DNA of 52,350 nt from Candidatus Daviesbacteria bacterium (lineage in GTDB: Bacteria > Patescibacteriota > Microgenomatia > Daviesbacterales > UBA10151): the NCBI GenBank assembly GCA_027451625.1, contig DAIDIY010000047.1, forward strand, positions 1 to 52,350. The letters run 5' to 3'. The notes beneath the pieces were generated by a model. It was not told the origin of the DNA. It saw only the letters and a program-made list of their open reading frames with translations, and searched no databases. How positions within the stretch are numbered: the stretch's first letter is position 1; every line of letters begins with the position of its first letter. A program made the position numbers and the translations under genes. This document shows positions 3 to 15,805 of this stretch, piece after piece.

Positions 3-1433
3 ATTCAAGCTTTTAAGCCTGTAGAATACTGGACTATTGAGGTCGAACTAAAACCTATCCCCGCTAAAGCTTTATCTTTTAAAGCCTTTGTTATCCAGTT
101 AAATGGTAAAAAAATTAATATAACCAACCAAGAAGAGGCTGGAAAGCATGTATCCTTCCTAAAACAGGCAAACTATACCGTCCAGAATGTTATTAAAAAG
201 GAAGTAAAACGACACCCCTATCCTCCTTTTACTACATCAACTCTTCAACAGACTGCTGCTAATAGACTCGGTTTTACAGCCAAGAGAACAATGATGCTAG
301 CTCAATATCTATATGAACAAGGTTTAATTACATATATGAGGACAGACTCATTAAATATTTCCTCAACTGCAATCTCTCAAGCAAGAGAGCATATTAATAA
401 CCATTTTGGCAGCTCATTTTTGCCTCCACAACCTAAGATTTATCGAACTAAATCCAAAGTAGCCCAAGAAGCTCATGAAGCAATAAGACCAACAAATATT
501 GATACTCAAGTAGAAAAATTAATGGAAGCTGAAGGTTTATCGAAAGATCACTTAAAGCTTTACGATCTAATTTGGAAGCGATTAGTTGCTTCACAGATGG
601 CTGATGCCATTTTGGATCAAACAACTGTTGATATAGATGGACTAGCTGATGCTAATAAATATTTACTCCGTGTAGTGGGCACAATTTTAAAATTTCCGGG
701 ATGGACAACCTTGTTTGAGGTAGAAAAAGAACCTCAAAAAGAAGCTGAAGAAAGCCAAGAATTACCAGCAATACAGTCTGGAGAAAATCTTATTTTTTGT
801 AACATCTATCCACTCCAACATTTTACTCAACCTCCACCAAGATATAATGAAGCTTCACTGATAAAAAAGTTAGAAGAATTAGGGATAGGAAGGCCTTCAA
901 CTTATGCTCCAACGCTAAGTACGATCCAAGATCGGTATTATATAGAAAAAGTAGAAAGACACTTAGTCCCTACTGAACTAGGTTTTGCGGTCACTGACTT
1001 TTTACTAAAAAACTTTCCCAACGTAATCGATTATACATTTACTGCAGGGTTGGAGGATCAACTCGATGAGATAGCAAGAGGTGAAAGAAAATGGCAAGAA
1101 GCAATCGGTCAGTTTTATACCCCTTTTGCTAATCAAATAGAAGATACTGCGAAGAAAGCGCAAAGAGTAGAGATTAACACTCCTGAAGTTGATAAAAAAT
1201 GCCCTGATTGCGGTAAACAATTGGTAGTTAAATTCGGGAAATTTGGCAAATTTTTGGCGTGTTCTGGTTTCCCCGATTGTAAACATACCGAAAATCTGGA
1301 AGAAATAATTGATGCTAAATGTCCAAATTGTGGAGGCCAAATAGTAATTCGACACAGCAAACGAGGTAAACCTTTCTATGGATGTAAGAATTATCCTAAT
1401 TGTAAATTTGCCAGTTGGACTAAACCTAAATAA
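3..1433 (+). CDS. topA: DNA topoisomerase I (type IA), 5'-truncated by window edge
   Basis: Frame is open from nt 3 (IQAFKPVEYWTI...PFTTSTLQQ). Motifs LYEQGLITYMRTDS (catalytic Tyr), QEAHEAIRPT, GIGRPSTYA and two C-terminal C4 zinc ribbons. The ORF-track start at 291 is internal. Confidence 0.97.
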   Translation: MQAFKPVEYWTIEVELKPIPAKALSFKAFVIQLNGKKINITNQEEAGKHVSFLKQANYTVQNVIKKEVKRHPYPPFTTSTLQQTAANRLGFTAKRTMMLAQYLYEQGLITYMRTDSLNISSTAISQAREHINNHFGSSFLPPQPKIYRTKSKVAQEAHEAIRPTNIDTQVEKLMEAEGLSKDHLKLYDLIWKRLVASQMADAILDQTTVDIDGLADANKYLLRVVGTILKFPGWTTLFEVEKEPQKEAEESQELPAIQSGENLIFCNIYPLQHFTQPPPRYNEASLIKKLEELGIGRPSTYAPTLSTIQDRYYIEKVERHLVPTELGFAVTDFLLKNFPNVIDYTFTAGLEDQLDEIARGERKWQEAIGQFYTPFANQIEDTAKKAQRVEINTPEVDKKCPDCGKQLVVKFGKFGKFLACSGFPDCKHTENLEEIIDAKCPNCGGQIVIRHSKRGKPFYGCKNYPNCKFASWTKPK

Positions 1434-1521
1434 ATATAAATTGTTAAATTAGATTATCTATATCTGAATAATGATTGATTTTTGACTTTAAATGTGAGAC
1501 TCTTTAATTAAGAGTCTGCCC

Positions 1522-2727
1522 ATGGCTGATATCTTTTATCCAACTACTGAGAATAATTTTGATCTTCTAACTACTATTATCTATGATGGGATAAGCCGCA
1601 GATCTAGTGATATTCATTTCCAGATTGAACGTAATCAGTTTCTAATTAGATTTAGAATTGATGGACAGCTTTATGAATATAAGAACTTTCCTGAAGAGGC
1701 AGCTGAGGAAATAGTATCGAGAATGAAAGTTTTAGGGGGAATGGATATAGCCAAACATCATGTACCCCAAGATGGACATTTTGAATTTTCTTACAATGGT
1801 AATACTTTTAATATACGGGTTTCGAGTATTCCTACTATATATGGTGAGTCCGTTGTCTTAAGACTTCACACAAGGCCAGAGACACTTCTTCCACTTGATA
1901 AAATTGGTTTTGAACAGGACCAATTAAGGCTTCTTAAAAATATGATTACATCAAGTTCTGGAATTATCTTAGTAACCGGCCCAACCAGCTCTGGAAAAAC
2001 TACCTTGCTTTACTCCATTCTTAACTTTCTTAATAATCCCACCAGGAGTATTTTAACTATAGAAGACCCGATAGAACTTCAAATTAACAATATCCGCCAA
2101 ACCCAAATAAACGAAGATATGGGACTAACATTCCCTAAAATCCTTCGCTCTGTCTTAAGACAAGATCCAAACATTATTATGCTTGGGGAGATTCGTGATG
2201 ATGAATCTGCTTTAATATCTATTCAAGCAGCTTTATCTGGAATTTTGATTCTTTCCACTTTCCATACTTTTGATGTCCCCGCACTTGTTAGCAGATTTAT
2301 GGAGATGAAAATACCTCCATCTGTCGTTGCTCAAGCAGTTAAAGGTGTTATATCAGTAAGATTAATCAGGACTATTTGTAAATATTGTAAATCTGAATAC
2401 ACTCTCAGTGAGTTTGAACAACGAATTTATGATCATTACCGACAAATAATTCCTCAGCTTGCAAATGTGAAATTTCAAAAAGGTAAAGGATGTAGTAACT
2501 GCCAAGGAACTGGCTATTTAGGTCGATCTCCTATCTTCGAAATAGTTTATTTCGATGAGCTTATTCGGTCAGGAATTATTGAAAGGAAACCTATATCATT
2601 TATTTATGATCTCCTTAAGCAAAAAAAAATTAAAAGCCTGCAAGAAATGGCATTGGCAAAAGTACTTACAGGAGAAACTACTTTTGAGGAAATAGCGAGA
2701 GTAACCGACTTTGCTCATCTAATGTAA
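1522..2727 (+). CDS. GspE/PilB-family secretion/pilus assembly ATPase (short form)
   Basis: SSDIHF, PQDGHF, Walker A GPTSSGKT, TIEDPIE, LRQDPNIIMLGEIRD, CxxC...CxxC zinc motif. Confidence 0.92.
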   Translation: MADIFYPTTENNFDLLTTIIYDGISRRSSDIHFQIERNQFLIRFRIDGQLYEYKNFPEEAAEEIVSRMKVLGGMDIAKHHVPQDGHFEFSYNGNTFNIRVSSIPTIYGESVVLRLHTRPETLLPLDKIGFEQDQLRLLKNMITSSSGIILVTGPTSSGKTTLLYSILNFLNNPTRSILTIEDPIELQINNIRQTQINEDMGLTFPKILRSVLRQDPNIIMLGEIRDDESALISIQAALSGILILSTFHTFDVPALVSRFMEMKIPPSVVAQAVKGVISVRLIRTICKYCKSEYTLSEFEQRIYDHYRQIIPQLANVKFQKGKGCSNCQGTGYLGRSPIFEIVYFDELIRSGIIERKPISFIYDLLKQKKIKSLQEMALAKVLTGETTFEEIARVTDFAHLM

Positions 2728-6492: not shown

Positions 6493-6801
6493 ATGAATTT
6501 AGAAGATCATTCTAACTGTAGTATTTCTAAAACATTAAAAATAATCGGATCCAAGTGGACCATGTTAATTTTGCATCTTCTGTTTGATGAGACTCTAAGA
6601 TTCGGACAATTACAAAAATCATTGAATGGTATTAGTCCTAAGACTCTATCTCAAAGGCTTAAAGAGTTAGAAAAAGATGGAATAATTAAAAAAGAGGTAT
6701 ATATACAAATTCCACTTAAAGTTGAATATTCCTTAACAGCGAAGGGTCAGTCTTTAAAAGAAATTTTCTCTAAAATGACAGAATGGGGATCTACGATATA
6801 A
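6493..6801 (+). CDS. HxlR/DUF24-family winged-helix transcriptional regulator
   Basis: N-terminal Cys (CSISKTLKIIGSKW), LRFGQLQ, ISPKTLSQRLKELE, KVEYSLT. Confidence 0.93.
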   Translation: MNLEDHSNCSISKTLKIIGSKWTMLILHLLFDETLRFGQLQKSLNGISPKTLSQRLKELEKDGIIKKEVYIQIPLKVEYSLTAKGQSLKEIFSKMTEWGSTI

Positions 6802-6808
6802 CCTTGTC

Positions 6809-9331
6809 TTATAAAAAATCCATGAATGAGTCGTCAACCGTAATCTTTTCACCCCGTTTTAGTTTATTCTCTAAAATCATTACTGAAAATCTTGCTTCAA
6901 GGGTATCTTGAATTAAACGTCTAAGCGGTCTTGCTCCCATTACTGGATCATAACCTTTTTGTGCGAGTAAGGAAACCAATTTATCGGTAAAATCTACCAT
7001 AAAACCCTGATCGGAAAGTATCTTCTGTAATGATTTAAGTTTAATCCTAACTATTTCTTCTAACTCTTCAACTTTAAGCGGCTTAAAGATGACAACTTCG
7101 TCAAATCTATTTATAAGCTCTGGTTGAAATATTTTTAACAGTTCTTCTTTGACTTGAGATTCTATTTCTTTTACCCCTTTCCCCTCTTCAAGTTTTGAAG
7201 CAATAAGTAAGCTAGCAGCGTTTGAAGTAGCAATTATAATTATATTAGTCAAATCAACTATTTCTCCTGTTCCATCTGTTAATCTACCATCTTCTAAAAC
7301 TTGTAAAAACAAAGTTAATATTTTAGGATCTGCTTTTTCAAATTCGTCCAATAATAGTAACCCATAGGGATGGTGATGTATCTCGCCTGTGAGTTGGCCT
7401 TCTTCATCATCTTTTCCTATAAGTCTTTCGATAGACTCAGGATTTTGGTACTCTGACATATCAAAGCGCCAAAAACTACCTTTATTATGAAAGTATATCT
7501 TAGCCACAATTTTAGCGAGTTCTGTCTTACCTACACCTGTCGGACCTACAAAGAGAAAAGAGCCAATAGGTCTTTTTATATCTCTTAATTGGGCTGCAGA
7601 TCGTTGTAAAACTTTAGAGACTGCGCTGACAGCCTCTTCTTGATCTATGAATTCTTGATGAACTAGTGGAGAAAAATTTAGTATTTCCTCCTTTTGTTTT
7701 CCGGTCACCTCTCCTACTGGTATATTAAGTTCGGTTTGAATTAATTTTTGAACACAAGCTCGTTTCACCCACGCTTTATCTGCATACGATAATGATCTCT
7801 CCCATAAATTCAAAGCACCAGCAGGTAAAGCTTGATCTACTATAAACTTTTGGCTACTTAAAATTATCTCTTTTAAGGCTGGGATTGTATATGATATCCT
7901 TTTCTCTTTTTCTGTCTTAATACACTCAATTTCTAAAATTTCAAACGTTTCATCTGTGGATGCTGGAGGAAGAGATATTTTAGTAAATCTTTGTAAGAAA
8001 GTATGATCCCGTTCTAAAACTTTCCCTAACCCCTCTTCTGTTGAGCTTATAATAAAGACAATGTCCTGAGAATTGAGATAAGGTAATATTAAGGAATAAA
8101 TATTTAAATTATTTCCTGCATCTCCTATTCCCAGGTCCTCTACTTCATCTATATAAATAATGATATTCCCACAATTTTGAGCTTCATCAAATATGCTTTT
8201 TATCCGTTCAGCTAACTCCCCTTCCGTTTTGACACCAGAGATAAGTCCTGTTAGATCTAACTGAACAATTCTTTTTGTTGCTAGTGACGAAGGAGCATCC
8301 CCACGAATAATTAATTTGGCTAAATATTCAACTAATGTTGTTTTCCCTGTTCCTGGTTGTCCTATTAATAGGATATTTCGATTATTATTTAAAGATAAGG
8401 TATTTACTACTTTACTCACAACATCTACTCTTCCTATAAGGTCAGGAATAAATCTTGTTGAAGCTTTTTGGGTCAAGTCAGATGTAATACGGTCCAAATT
8501 CGGGGTAGGAATATTTAACCATCCTCTGTTGACTCCTTTTAAATGCCTTACTTCAAATTTTTCATCCCAAACATTCACTCTTTCTTTTAATTCTATCTTC
8601 TTTTCGACAAACTTTAGAGTATTAATAAAATCCTCTTCTCCAAGTCTAAATTGAATTAATTTTTGACTAAAAAGAGAGGTTGAGAGAACAATTCCACAAA
8701 AAAAATACTCTGAGGAAAGATATATCGCATTCAGTTCTTTTCCTAGCTTAAGTGTTTTCTCTAGAGCAGAATTAGGATCATAGATCAAGTTTAAATTCAA
8801 GACATCTTTTGGAGTTAGCTCTAAATATTCCAAAAAGACTTTTATTTCATCAAATTGTAGGAGTGCCTTTAAATCAAATTTAGACTTATCAATCAGCGAA
8901 GACTTCCATATTTCTTCAACTCCTTTAATTTTCCAGACCTTCTTTTGAGGATGACTGAAATAATTATAAACAATAAAAATTACCCCCCAAGCACAAACCA
9001 AATGAAAAATAACCCTCCATTCATCTTGTATAATAAAAGAAAGGAATGGAGATGCAATCCAAATCACGCTTAAGGATAAAACTATCAAACTAACGAAACC
9101 GAAACTAAATAATCCAAGAATAATTCTGCTTAATCTAAATAAAAGACTTAAAATACGACCAGTTATCGACCTGTCATGATATAAAGGTACAAAAAGTAAT
9201 CTAAACATTAAGCCAACACTCAAGTCCTCTTCTAAGTAAAACAATGAGTTTTCCCAAATTCTCAACCATACTAAAACTCCATCAATAAACCAAAACTTAA
9301 AGATATATAAAGGCAAATATAAAAATCTCAT
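6809..9331 (-). CDS. Clp/Hsp100-like double AAA+ ATPase with N-terminal transmembrane region
   Basis: Walker A GQPGTGKT and GPTGVGKTE; Walker B IIIYIDE and LLLLDEFEKA; FQPELINRFD, GARPLRR; hydrophobic helices in the first ~125 aa. Confidence 0.88.
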   Translation of the reverse strand: MRFLYLPLYIFKFWFIDGVLVWLRIWENSLFYLEEDLSVGLMFRLLFVPLYHDRSITGRILSLLFRLSRIILGLFSFGFVSLIVLSLSVIWIASPFLSFIIQDEWRVIFHLVCAWGVIFIVYNYFSHPQKKVWKIKGVEEIWKSSLIDKSKFDLKALLQFDEIKVFLEYLELTPKDVLNLNLIYDPNSALEKTLKLGKELNAIYLSSEYFFCGIVLSTSLFSQKLIQFRLGEEDFINTLKFVEKKIELKERVNVWDEKFEVRHLKGVNRGWLNIPTPNLDRITSDLTQKASTRFIPDLIGRVDVVSKVVNTLSLNNNRNILLIGQPGTGKTTLVEYLAKLIIRGDAPSSLATKRIVQLDLTGLISGVKTEGELAERIKSIFDEAQNCGNIIIYIDEVEDLGIGDAGNNLNIYSLILPYLNSQDIVFIISSTEEGLGKVLERDHTFLQRFTKISLPPASTDETFEILEIECIKTEKEKRISYTIPALKEIILSSQKFIVDQALPAGALNLWERSLSYADKAWVKRACVQKLIQTELNIPVGEVTGKQKEEILNFSPLVHQEFIDQEEAVSAVSKVLQRSAAQLRDIKRPIGSFLFVGPTGVGKTELAKIVAKIYFHNKGSFWRFDMSEYQNPESIERLIGKDDEEGQLTGEIHHHPYGLLLLDEFEKADPKILTLFLQVLEDGRLTDGTGEIVDLTNIIIIATSNAASLLIASKLEEGKGVKEIESQVKEELLKIFQPELINRFDEVVIFKPLKVEELEEIVRIKLKSLQKILSDQGFMVDFTDKLVSLLAQKGYDPVMGARPLRRLIQDTLEARFSVMILENKLKRGEKITVDDSFMDFL

Positions 9332-13328: not shown

Positions 13329-13632
13329 CACCGTCTTAACGGTGTAGTTTTTTAAAGAAGTACCAAAAACTTCTGTCACCTTATCCTCTAATTAGCTTAA
13401 AAATTAAGTTTTGTTAAAGGGTGAGCAAGGATAACAATGGATCCAAATTTCAGCTACCTATCGCCAGAGGCGATTTAAGGAATCTGTCAATTTGATCAAA
13501 TCTCCAGAAAGGAGGTGATCCATCCGCAGCTTCGGCTACGGATACCTTGTTACGACTTAAGCTTCATCGCTGGTTTCACCTTCGACCGATAAAATCGATC
13601 TTCGGGTGCCCCCAACTTTGCTGCCTTGACGG

Positions 13633-14373
13633 ATTGGAATAATTTAAGGTTATCTTCCGTTCCCACTTAGCGAGCCGATTTCCGGCACTAAGCGAGCCGA
13701 AATGTTTTTAACTCATTATGTAAAGCATCCATTGTGAGTTTTAAAAACCAAACTTATTGTAATGGATTCTCCTTAAAGAAAGGAACTATCACATTTTGGA
13801 TATCTGCTTATTTAGTAACTTCATACGAAGATTGTATTCTTTTTATCGTTCCCTTGAAACTTTCTATAAATATATCCTATCTTGAAAAATATACAGGCTT
13901 TGTCTAAAAGCCTTTTATTATCAGAGTTCTAATCTGAACTAAAAACAACCTTCTTCATCAGTTACCCCAACAATATAGTCTAACGTTAACATTTCGTAGA
14001 TTCCTTTGGTATCTATTTGTAATTATTAATCTCAGTAGTAATTCAGATTAATAATCTTGCCAATACCTACTATGAATCTGCTGACTTCCTAAGAGGCAAT
14101 TACCTCATTCTTCTTAGGATCTCCATGGGTTATATATAGTGCTATTCCGAACATTCCATATAAGTTTTAAGATATTTATCTTAAGACTTCTCTCAAACCG
14201 CCCGATGAGATCATCTATTAAAAAACTCTTTTTAGTTGGACTATTCTTCGCTTCAGGCCCTCCAGCTAAAAGGTTACCCTTTATAGCCTGCCAATTTTTT
14301 TTAGCTATCTATAAATTATAGAATAGGACTTTAACCTATTAGTACTATATACTGCCATGCGCGGATAAAATTT
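13633..14373 (-). mobile_element. Group II intron (IIC-like ribozyme core, no RT ORF) in 16S rRNA at E. coli 1402/1403
   Basis: Splits GTACACACCGC|CCGTCA. Domain V at 13662-13696 (CGC triad, 2-nt bulge, GAAA loop). Domain VI with bulged A at -8 and AAT terminus. J2/3-DIII motif AAGTCAGCAGATTCATAGTAGG (14066-14087). EBS loop at 14191-14210. Confidence 0.88.
13754..13992 (-). pseudogene. Degenerate LAGLIDADG homing endonuclease in intron domain IV
   Basis: Manual translation: MLTLDYIVGVTDEEGCF* (stop at 13939-13941), then frameshifted fragments DNKRLLDKACIFFKIGYIY and SYEVTK*ADIQNVIVPFFKENPLQ*. Confidence 0.85.
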
Positions 14374-15661
14374 GCGGTGTGTACAAAAGGCGAGAACGTA
14401 TTCACCGCGACCTGCTGATTCGCGATTACTAGCAATTCCTCCTTCATGAGGTCGGGTTGCAGACCTCAATCTGAACTGAGGCGAAATTTCAGAGATTAGC
14501 TTACAGTTACCTGCTTGCAACTCGTTGTTTTTCGCCATTGTAGGGTGTGTGTTGCCCAGGACGTAAGAGCCGTGCTGACCTGACATCATCCCCACCTTCC
14601 TCCCCGACAAAATCGGGGCTGTTTCGCATGAATAATTTAACATACGATGGGGGTTGCGCTCGTTACCCGACTTAACGGTACAGCTCACGCCACGAGCTGA
14701 CGACGGCCATGCAGCATCTGTGTAGCACCCTCGAAGGTCACACGTTTCCGTGCGCTTGCAGCTACATGTCAAGTCCTGGTGAGGTTCTTCGCTTTGAATC
14801 GAATTAAACCACACGCTCCACTGCTTGTGCGCCTTCCCGTCAATTCCTTTGAGTTTTAAACTTGCGTTCGTACTCCCCAGGCGCTCTGCTTAACGCGTTA
14901 GCTTCGACACTGATTCCGACAAATCGGAACCAATATCTAGCAGAGATCGTTTACGGCTTGGACTACGCAGGTCTCTAATCTGCTTCGCTCCCCAAGCTGT
15001 CGTGCCTAAGCGTCAAGAATACCCTAGGTGTCTGACTTCTCCTTCGGCGTTCCCGATGATCTCAACACATTTCACTGCTCCACCATCGGTTCCAACACCC
15101 TCTTGTATCTTCAAGATTGAACATATCTTGTCCCAAACCTCGATTGAGTCGAGGGCTTTCAAACAAGATGCTTCAATCCGCCTACGCAACTCTTTACGCC
15201 CAATGAATCCGGATAACGCTTGCACCCTACGTATTACCGAGGCTTCTGGCACGTAGTTAGCAGGTGCTTATTCGCTAAGTACCGTCATAATCTTTCTTAG
15301 CAAAAGGAGTTTACAATCCGAAGACCTTCAATCCTCCACGCGGCGTCGCTCGGTCAGGCTTTCGCCCATTGCCGAATATTCCCAGTTGCTGCCACCCGTA
15401 GGTGTATGGGCCGTGTCGCAGTCCCATTGTGGCTGACCATCCTCTCAGACCAGCTACCCGTCGTTGCCTTGGTAGGCCATTACCCTACCAACTAGCTGAT
15501 AGGACGCAGGCTCATCTTAAAGCGCGAAAGCTTTAGTCTTACGACCACATTGGAAATTACCCCATCTTTCGATAAGCTATGTCCAACTTTAAGGAAGATA
15601 CCCACGCGTTACTCACCCGTCCGCCGGTTGCCCTTGCGGGCCCCCTTGACTTGCATGCTTA

Positions 15662-15704
<43 letters not shown>

Positions 15705-15805
15705 AAAAAAAGCGTAAATAGTTAGTTTAGTTTTATCTGAAAATCAAATAAAACTATTTAATACTAAGCTTTTTGGAATTGACAAGTTGACTCTTGTCAA
15801 AAAAT

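Follow-up and report, generated by a model that had tools for sequence, protein, structure and literature searches.

A probable group II intron of class IIC ancestry with a decayed homing-endonuclease gene in the 16S rRNA gene of a Candidatus Daviesbacteria bacterium

The only 16S rRNA gene found in the genome assembly of a Candidatus Daviesbacteria bacterium (GCA_027451625.1) is split by a 741-nt insert close to its 3' end. The gene lies on the minus strand of contig DAIDIY010000047.1, of which 52,350 nt were analysed (the window), and it is the only match in the window to reach an Rfam gathering score (SSU_rRNA_bacteria, 1270.6 bits). According to our analysis, the insert very probably represents a group II intron of class IIC ancestry that belongs to the C1402/C1403 lineage of the '16S position-1400' (16IS9) family found in the candidate phyla radiation (CPR) and is still excised. 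Deletion of positions 13633-14373 rejoins GUACACACCGC to CCGUCA and thereby recreates the universal GYACACACCGCCCGUCA; the original prediction, drawn from the letters of the stretch, had claimed as much, and reading of the sense strand confirms it. The two junctions read ...UUGUACACACCGC / AAAUUUUAUCCGCGCAUGG ... UUAUUCCAAU / CCGUCAAGGCAGC..., and the 3' exon continues to ...GGAUCACCUCCUUUC. Because the first letter of the intron is A and the last is U, the boundary cannot be slid in this copy. Going by the 1392-1406 primer region, we take the break to lie between C1402 and C1403 in E. coli numbering, and hence in the decoding centre. The assembly (G000) is 98.45% complete in 51 contigs and contains one 16S gene and one copy of the intron; no RVT_1 (reverse transcriptase, RT) match occurs anywhere in it. 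With no other 16S gene found and the decoding centre interrupted, excision and exact ligation of the exons would still be needed.

Relatives of the intron were sought in two ways. A BLAST search with the whole intron against 60 related genomes gave a single true, if weak, match (L002), in which a homologous intron with an intact LAGLIDADG open reading frame (ORF) resides between A1396 and C1397; a further match (L003) lies inside a coding region and was dropped as a chance hit. A scan of species-representative genomes for the motif spanning the domain II-III junction (J2/3) and domain III returned at least 119 loci. Among those listed, 15 match the window's 5' exon, including the window itself and L002/L098, which are identical over the stretch compared and were counted once. 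Nine of these listed matches carry the intron at 1402/1403, two (L002/L098 and L094) carry it at 1396/1397, and another two (L117 and L052) carry two introns each, separated by a micro-exon of 6 nt (CACCGC). A sample of 401 genomes from the window's class contained the exact 1402-type 3' junction pattern in 14, G000 among them, and the reversed-pattern control in none. Once identical sequences were removed, 22 distinct introns at 1402/1403 remained (the window's and 21 others), one of them interrupted by a contig end. The introns of L047 and L117 have identical counterparts in genomes of the window's class, and these two loci were left out when considering spread beyond the CPR. As to the tandem arrangements, which occupy 6574-7904 (-) in L117 and 331-2081 (+) in L052, the upstream intron lacks an ORF in L117 (474 nt) and has a LAGLIDADG ORF in L052; the tail of the L136 intron equals that of L117 over the 600 nt compared.

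The comparative evidence for a group II fold comes from 12 introns of the 1402 site, aligned as two separate parts (A1 and A2) that were never joined. For the 5' part, RNAalifold predicted 85 pairs, 55 of them with compensatory changes. Three pairs were dropped, two of them falling within the exon-binding loop and one being isolated, leaving 82 pairs in 12 helices that make up the closing stem of domain I (DI), its 12-bp helix, the AUAGG/CCUAU and GUAA-tetraloop hairpins, domain II (DII) and domain III (DIII). These DI-DIII pairs are formed in 96.2% of cases over the 12 sequences, as opposed to 76.3% in shuffles (0 of 500 reach the observed value) and only 37-47% when partners are slid as a control, and both sides change in 54 of the 82. 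The same holds for domains V (DV) and VI (DVI), where 21 pairs are 93.7% paired against 78.6% in shuffles, again with 0 of 500 reaching it. Covariation with other 1402-site insertions had been put forward in the original prediction as a way to check its fold, and it bears that fold out: the motifs that it listed for DI, DII, J2/3, DIII, domain IV (DIV), DV and DVI are present where it placed them, most of them backed by covariation (Table 1).

Table 1. Features of the interrupted 16S rRNA gene and of its probable intron, in window coordinates
Feature	Position	Strand	Basis
16S rRNA gene, only one found in assembly	13508..15710	-	Rfam and reading of the 3' end
16S 5' exon	14374-15710	-	
16S 3' exon	about 13508-13632	-	
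Probable group II intron, 741 nt, apparently IIC-derived	13633..14373	-	
IBS1 ACCGC, final 5 nt of the 5' exon (A1398-C1402)	14374..14378	-	Watson-Crick complementary to the EBS1 loop
5' terminal linker AAAUUUUAU, 9 nt, A/U-rich, between the 5' splice site and the GUGYG equivalent	14365..14373	-	Alignment A2
CCGCG, counterpart of the canonical 5' GUGCG	14360..14364	-	Alignments
Domain I	14124..14359	-	RNAalifold and pair counts, 12 sequences
DI closing stem CAUGG/CCAUG	14355-14359 with 14124-14128	-	
DI 12-bp helix	14341-14352/14132-14143	-	
DI hairpin AUAGG-UUAAAGU-CCUAU	14323-14339	-	
DI GUAA-tetraloop hairpin	14264-14288	-	
EBS1 loop GGGCGGU, in hairpin 14191-14210	14197..14203	-	Invariant in 22/22 distinct 1402-site introns
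Domain II, CCUAAGA/UCUUAGG	14083..14123	-	Helix 10: 12 pairs, 6 compensatory
J2/3 AGC	14080..14082	-	Invariant 12/12; within the GGAAGUCAGC motif common to canonical IIC introns
Domain III, AGAUUC..GAAUCU, internal loop AUAGUA/AAAG	13998..14079	-	Sub-threshold Rfam match and helices 11-12
Domain IV	13698..13996	-	Basal stem is a perfect inverted repeat
Decayed LAGLIDADG homing-endonuclease gene, MLTLDYIVGVTDEEGCF then TAG	13707..13992	-	Reading frames and alignment A3
Domain V	13662..13696	-	14 pairs, 100% paired in 12 sequences, 4 compensatory
Domain VI, bulged A at 13640 (-8)	13636..13658	-	Pair counts, 12 sequences

The catalytic domain bears the expected signature. DV has a CGC triad (13692-13694) with a G.U wobble, and the three triad pairs (C-G, G.U and C-G) are invariant in all 12 sequences; a 2-nt UC bulge (13672-13673) and an upper helix of 4 bp complete it. 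In DVI the basal 4 bp are paired in every sequence, with compensatory changes in three of these four pairs. The inner 3 bp are unpaired in four to six of the 12 and are thus regular only in part of the family, to which the window's subclade belongs: here the alignment, read by eye, has a regular inner helix with a single bulged A at -8. DVI is followed by AAU, so that the 3' boundary fits AY. The epsilon-prime-like GAAGC and the gamma-gamma' positions are invariant in all 12 sequences and hence speak neither for nor against the fold. One relative, L009 (2016-2125, -), carries a 36-nt insertion that separates the lower helix of DV from the triad partners on the 3' strand; by eye it folds into two small hairpins, and it is hard to square with catalysis unless it is removed or tolerated.

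The same fold bears on the notion that a group I or bulge-helix-bulge intron has been mistaken for a group II intron. LAGLIDADG-bearing group I introns are the commoner kind in CPR rRNA genes, as far as the portion of Tsurumaki et al. (2024, PMC11270868) considered here goes, and L002 itself has a second 16S insertion farther 3' (2277-2561, +), between AAGUCGU and AACAAGGUA, that is group I-like (RF00028, 41.5 bits, cut-off 50). Nonetheless, the search that detects this L002 insertion finds no Intron_gpI match in the window's insert at E<=10, and the covariation-supported structure runs from DI to DVI with the DV triad and bulge, so that a misassigned intron class is scarcely conceivable. A better fit to a group I model, which the original prediction had itself named as grounds for abandoning its proposal, was accordingly not seen.

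The 5' end of the intron holds two features that the original prediction had overlooked (a third, the decay of the endonuclease gene, is discussed below): the 9-nt linker and the loop of exon-binding site 1 (EBS1). The stem of the EBS1 hairpin covaries (helix 9), and the GCGGU of its loop pairs with the ACCGC that constitutes intron-binding site 1 (IBS1) in the 5' exon, giving five pairs that end exactly at the splice site. The two 5' G's of the loop could moreover pair with C1403 and C1404, for up to seven pairs across the junction ACCGC/CC. In the two introns at 1396/1397 (L002/L094-type) the equivalent loop is GUGUAC, complementary to GUACA/C, and in a third type (L117a/L052a) it is CGUACAG, of which GUACA pairs with U1391-C1395, the boundary being ambiguous by one A. 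This change of EBS1 in step with the insertion site provides the strongest evidence, as judged from sequence complementarity, that these RNAs would recognize their exons in the manner of group II introns. A delta-delta' (IIA-like) pairing of the two G's 5' of EBS1 with the 3' exon was also considered but not established; it suits the 1402 and L002-type families and not the third.

As for the linker, its columns are gaps in canonical IIC introns, which begin exactly at its end, and its length in relatives ranges from 8 to 31 nt where it can be delimited. Immediately after it, the CGCG of the CCGCG motif is invariant in all 12 sequences and lines up with UGCG in canonical GUGCG, and only the letter before it varies. 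Were the end of the EBS1-IBS1 helix to fix the splice site, this would explain how the linker can form part of the intron. Among relatives, the long linkers (the first 25-31 nt of the introns of L045, L018, L006, L044, L009, L126 and L138) form by eye a hairpin beginning 1-2 nt past the splice site, after which comes an A-rich spacer; copies with short linkers, the window's included, have only an A/U-rich spacer. The idea that the hairpin linkers are relics of the terminator targeted by IIC introns was dropped, the spacers being A-rich rather than U-rich and the short-linker copies having no hairpin.

The assignment to class IIC draws on ordinary RT-bearing introns that the motif scan also returned, which make up most of its listed loci and served only for comparison of class, 18 submitted loci matching group-II-D1D4-3, group-II-D1D4-1 and Intron_gpII above cut-off. 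Class comparators were taken from among the RT-bearing introns (L007, L013, L016, L021, L022 and L069). The 5' flanks of the six that were read each place the intron directly behind a hairpin and T-run terminator, and all four DV sequences read have the CGC triad; hence these comparators are canonical IIC introns. Between the window's intron and four canonical IIC introns, the blocks GGCAG, the GGU..AAGUCC hairpin, the GGUAAC loop and GGAGG are collinear, and so are ACCC..GGAGAUCC, GGAAGUCAGC, CAUAGUAGG and GAAGG. The window's intron thus resembles canonical IIC introns (e.g. B.h.I1, O.i.I1) in its CGC triad, its compact ribozyme and its collinear DI, J2/3 and DIII blocks, and the ribozyme is, on the strength of these shared blocks, IIC-derived. 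The original prediction of an RT-less, IIC-derived ribozyme between C1402 and C1403, tied to a LAGLIDADG endonuclease lineage and in need of precise removal, is supported. Canonical IIC introns start with GUGYG, insert behind terminator or attC hairpins and encode a class C RT, whereas the window's intron has a linker, an rRNA site with no terminator upstream and a LAGLIDADG remnant; its DI is shorter, and its IBS1 spans 5 nt (7 across the junction), as opposed to the 3-4 nt of canonical IIC introns. The attributes of IIC mobility, namely a terminator or attC target, a short IBS1 and a class C RT in DIV, are all absent from it.

The basal stem of DIV, CGAAAUGUU/AACAUUUCG, sequesters an AUG (13990-13992), and its CGAAAUG/CAUUUCG becomes CGUAAUG/CAUUACG in other members, a compensatory change. 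Ten of the 12 aligned introns have an intact ORF of 147-173 aa in this domain, one with a GUG start, and the four ORFs tested from relatives are single-domain Pfam LAGLIDADG_1 proteins (E 2e-16 to 2e-23). The window's DIV aligns over its full length with those of intact relatives at the DNA level (A3), but the gene is broken by the loss of 1 nt in a T run, by three deletions (40, 2 and about 96 nt) and by stops, so that what follows the initial remnant is scattered over other frames. Pfam gave no match for its two ORF fragments (27 and 35 aa), which are too short. The proposal that the RT had been swapped for a homing endonuclease is thus supported for the lineage, whose LAGLIDADG gene is intact in most relatives, and not for the window copy, where only a decayed remnant of the gene survives, leaving the element with no RT and no endonuclease. 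The loss in the T run is common to the window (13939-13950) and its closest relative, L028 (about 600-612), both of which have T5 where intact genes have T6 (GGUUGUUUUUAG). The downstream frame of L028 remains open for 146 codons, which would be explained either by a very recent frameshift or by ribosomal -1 slippage at UUU-UAG.

In all, DIV has lost about 140 nt, and every ribozyme position that is invariant in the alignment remains intact (triad, DV bulge, J2/3, EBS1 and DI closing stem). Decay limited to the coding insert is what would be expected under selection on the ribozyme, and it is difficult to reconcile with a dead relic, that is, a ribozyme that no longer splices in a 16S copy that has become a pseudogene or whose function is supplied by an unassembled copy free of the intron. 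The decay of the endonuclease gene, the lack of any maturase or RT in the genome, the 51-contig state of the assembly (rRNA copies are often missed) and the want of RNA evidence from public runs would all suit such a relic. Nevertheless, a single 16S gene in a 98.45%-complete genome and the untouched ribozyme core argue the other way, and a pseudogene relic is possible only if a second 16S gene was left unassembled. We therefore regard this explanation as improbable.

A further alternative is that the insert is an intervening sequence cut out by RNase III-type processing and never ligated, yielding a fragmented 16S rRNA in the manner of the intervening sequences of 23S rRNA, with the likeness to group II introns being vestigial. 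The conserved EBS1 loop and the catalytic DV would then have no role, no inverted repeat was found that would bring the ends of the insert together in a stem for processing, and a break between C1402 and C1403 would presumably sever the decoding centre. Set against this, the 1402-site intron of one relative, L137 (1650-2027, -), has in its DIV an ORF of the 23S_rRNA_IVP family (PF05635, E 6e-29) instead of a LAGLIDADG gene, and fragmenting intervening sequences are known in bacterial 23S rRNA, according to the part of Tsurumaki et al. (2024, PMC11270868) considered here. On balance, fragmentation without ligation appears very improbable.

Several observations nonetheless weigh against a spliced group II intron of class IIC ancestry, and they have to be set beside the comparative evidence. 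No Rfam group II model reaches its cut-off in the insert. The best match at E<=10 is group-II-D1D4-1 (RF01998) over DII-J2/3-DIII (14001-14107), which at 22.6 bits falls short of the cut-off of 35 (E 0.09-0.31), and Intron_gpII (RF00029), which covers DV-DVI, gives no match in the insert even at E<=10. The Infernal search suggested in the original prediction therefore formally fails, and because Rfam models alone do not settle group II identity, the argument depends on comparative structure. GUGYG does not adjoin the 5' splice site, since the linker intervenes; DV is 33 nt long, with a 5-nt GAAAU loop in place of a GNRA tetraloop; and position -3, a G in most IIC introns in the sections of the literature consulted, is an A here. 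With the assembly in 51 contigs, another 16S copy that lacks the intron may exist, or conserved 16S sequence may have been joined chimerically. Efficient splicing in vivo, finally, has to be assumed for an element with neither maturase nor endonuclease, and none of the public sequencing runs contains more than 0.16 of the sampled words, so that they offer no RNA evidence for this organism. Contigs assembled from these runs represent conserved 16S sequence from other organisms. Among them, the RNA contig X5 has a ligated CACCGC/CCGUCAAGGCAGCA at its end; it is indistinguishable from an intron-less relative and constitutes no evidence on splicing of the window copy. Short contigs over DV-DVI from a groundwater DNA run show 5-6 differences and point to relatives.

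For the group II intron that we favour, a plausible course of events can be outlined. The RNA would still be excised and the exons ligated exactly, with the 5' splice site set by the end of the EBS1-IBS1 helix and the linker looped out. The DV and J2/3 core would catalyse the reaction, with no maturase encoded in cis and no group II RT elsewhere in the genome. In the portions of the literature consulted, hydrolysis predominates in vitro for IIC ribozymes and for rRNA introns with linkers, and branching is promoted by a basal DVI helix of 4 bp; the window copy has a canonical bulged A on just such a helix, and we would give hydrolysis and branching from this retained A about even chances as the first step. 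The element presumably spread at first at the DNA level through LAGLIDADG-mediated homing. The present copy would be immobile, and we propose that it persists because its loss must be precise.

The kind of intron described here is already in print, and the element as such is no novelty. In CPR 16S genes, Tsurumaki et al. (2024, PMC11270868) count 53 group II-like insertions, located only at position 1400 (16IS9), of which 39 have an annotated ORF, frequently LAGLIDADG, and 14 have none; no RT is recorded in the part of the paper considered. On that description, 16IS9 and the window's intron agree in the CPR host, the position-1400 region, a group II-like RNA, the absence of an RT, and a single-domain LAGLIDADG_1 ORF (in the window only a broken homologue of one) or none, and the window element is almost certainly a member of 16IS9. 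In the same sections the site is given as 'position 1400', with no division into 1396/1397 and 1402/1403 and no reference to EBS1, the 5' linker or class IIC. In bacteria, the rns-1396 family of Liu et al. (2026, PMC13190283) combines an IIC backbone with a single-motif LAGLIDADG homing endonuclease (LHE) in DIV and is reported only from Thiotrichaceae. All its members have a 5' terminal linker and a conserved IBS1, none has an EBS2, and degeneration of the LHE is common, again according to the sections considered, in which the first IIC-LHE intron is attributed to Salman et al. (2012); the text of Liu et al. contains neither 'CPR' nor 'Patescibacteria'. The combination of IIC and LAGLIDADG in 16S has thus been published for both giant sulfur bacteria and CPR. 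Set side by side by description only, rns-1396 and the window's intron are alike in IIC backbone, 16S location, 5' linker, conserved IBS1, lack of an EBS2, LAGLIDADG in DIV (a remnant in the window) and the degeneration of that gene. They differ in that rns-1396 introns reside at site 1396 of gammaproteobacterial hosts, whereas the window's insertion is not at 1396/1397 but 6 nt downstream, with a different EBS1.

Linkers at the 5' end also have precedents. Zimmerly & Semper (2015), citing Li et al. (2011), describe in the pages considered introns of fungal mitochondrial rRNA with 5'-terminal insertions of 1-33 nt ahead of GUGYG; in Clostridium tetani, C.te.I1 splices 8 nt upstream of that motif. 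The fungal introns share with the window's the extra nucleotides before GUGYG, LAGLIDADG ORFs, location in rRNA genes and the loss of EBS2. As described there, they are however of class IIB1 and have usually lost the branch-point A, whereas the window's subclade keeps a bulged A and a 4-bp basal DVI helix. Searches of the literature on group II introns in CPR 16S genes and on IIC introns with LAGLIDADG found none in which the 1396 and 1402 sites are told apart or EBS1 loops are described, and the supplements of Tsurumaki et al. may list the sites. Hence, the points not met in the literature examined are the site-specific EBS1 loops and the arrangement, in relatives, of two introns around a 6-nt micro-exon.

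These points suggest a broader proposal, which we advance tentatively and at somewhat less than even likelihood: the CPR 'position-1400' introns may comprise at least two, and probably three, sister IIC lineages in which EBS1 has been rewritten for nearby sites (GUGUAC for 1396/1397, GUACA for 1395/6 and GGGCGGU for 1402/1403), and copies such as the window's, with a dead endonuclease, no RT in the genome, a non-canonical 9-nt linker and a place in the sole 16S gene, may be natural, protein-independent ribozymes of ~450 nt. If this were true, the 5' splice site of such copies would be set in vivo purely by EBS1-IBS1 pairing, and the retargeting of an RT-less intron by 6 nt would imply either a step at the RNA level (reverse splicing) or co-evolution of endonuclease and EBS1. 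More generally, the window copy would be a small IIC ribozyme of natural origin, about 450 nt long when DIV is left out, that has to act with neither maturase nor endonuclease where the ribosome is most constrained. As it combines a non-canonical 5' linker with a canonical branch site, it offers a handy substrate for addressing how linker-bearing group II introns pick their 5' splice site, and whether branching or hydrolysis is used. As regards annotation, removal of the 741 nt leaves this genome with an intact 16S gene, and primers or models laid across 1392-1406 would miss or mis-size it.

Outside the 16S gene, Rfam detects no 23S gene after it within the 52-kb window (1-52350); the 23S and 5S genes of G000 lie on another contig (C48, L124), where the only other LAGLIDADG_1 ORF of the genome, intact and 156 aa long, resides inside the 23S gene. 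Among relatives at the 1402 site, the intron of L129 carries a different LAGLIDADG_1 lineage, and L134 has a 542-nt, ORF-less relative of the L137 intron. L047 has a second insertion, like that of L002 between AAGUCGU and AACAAGGUA, about 100 nt 3' of its group II intron, with a long open reading frame by eye.

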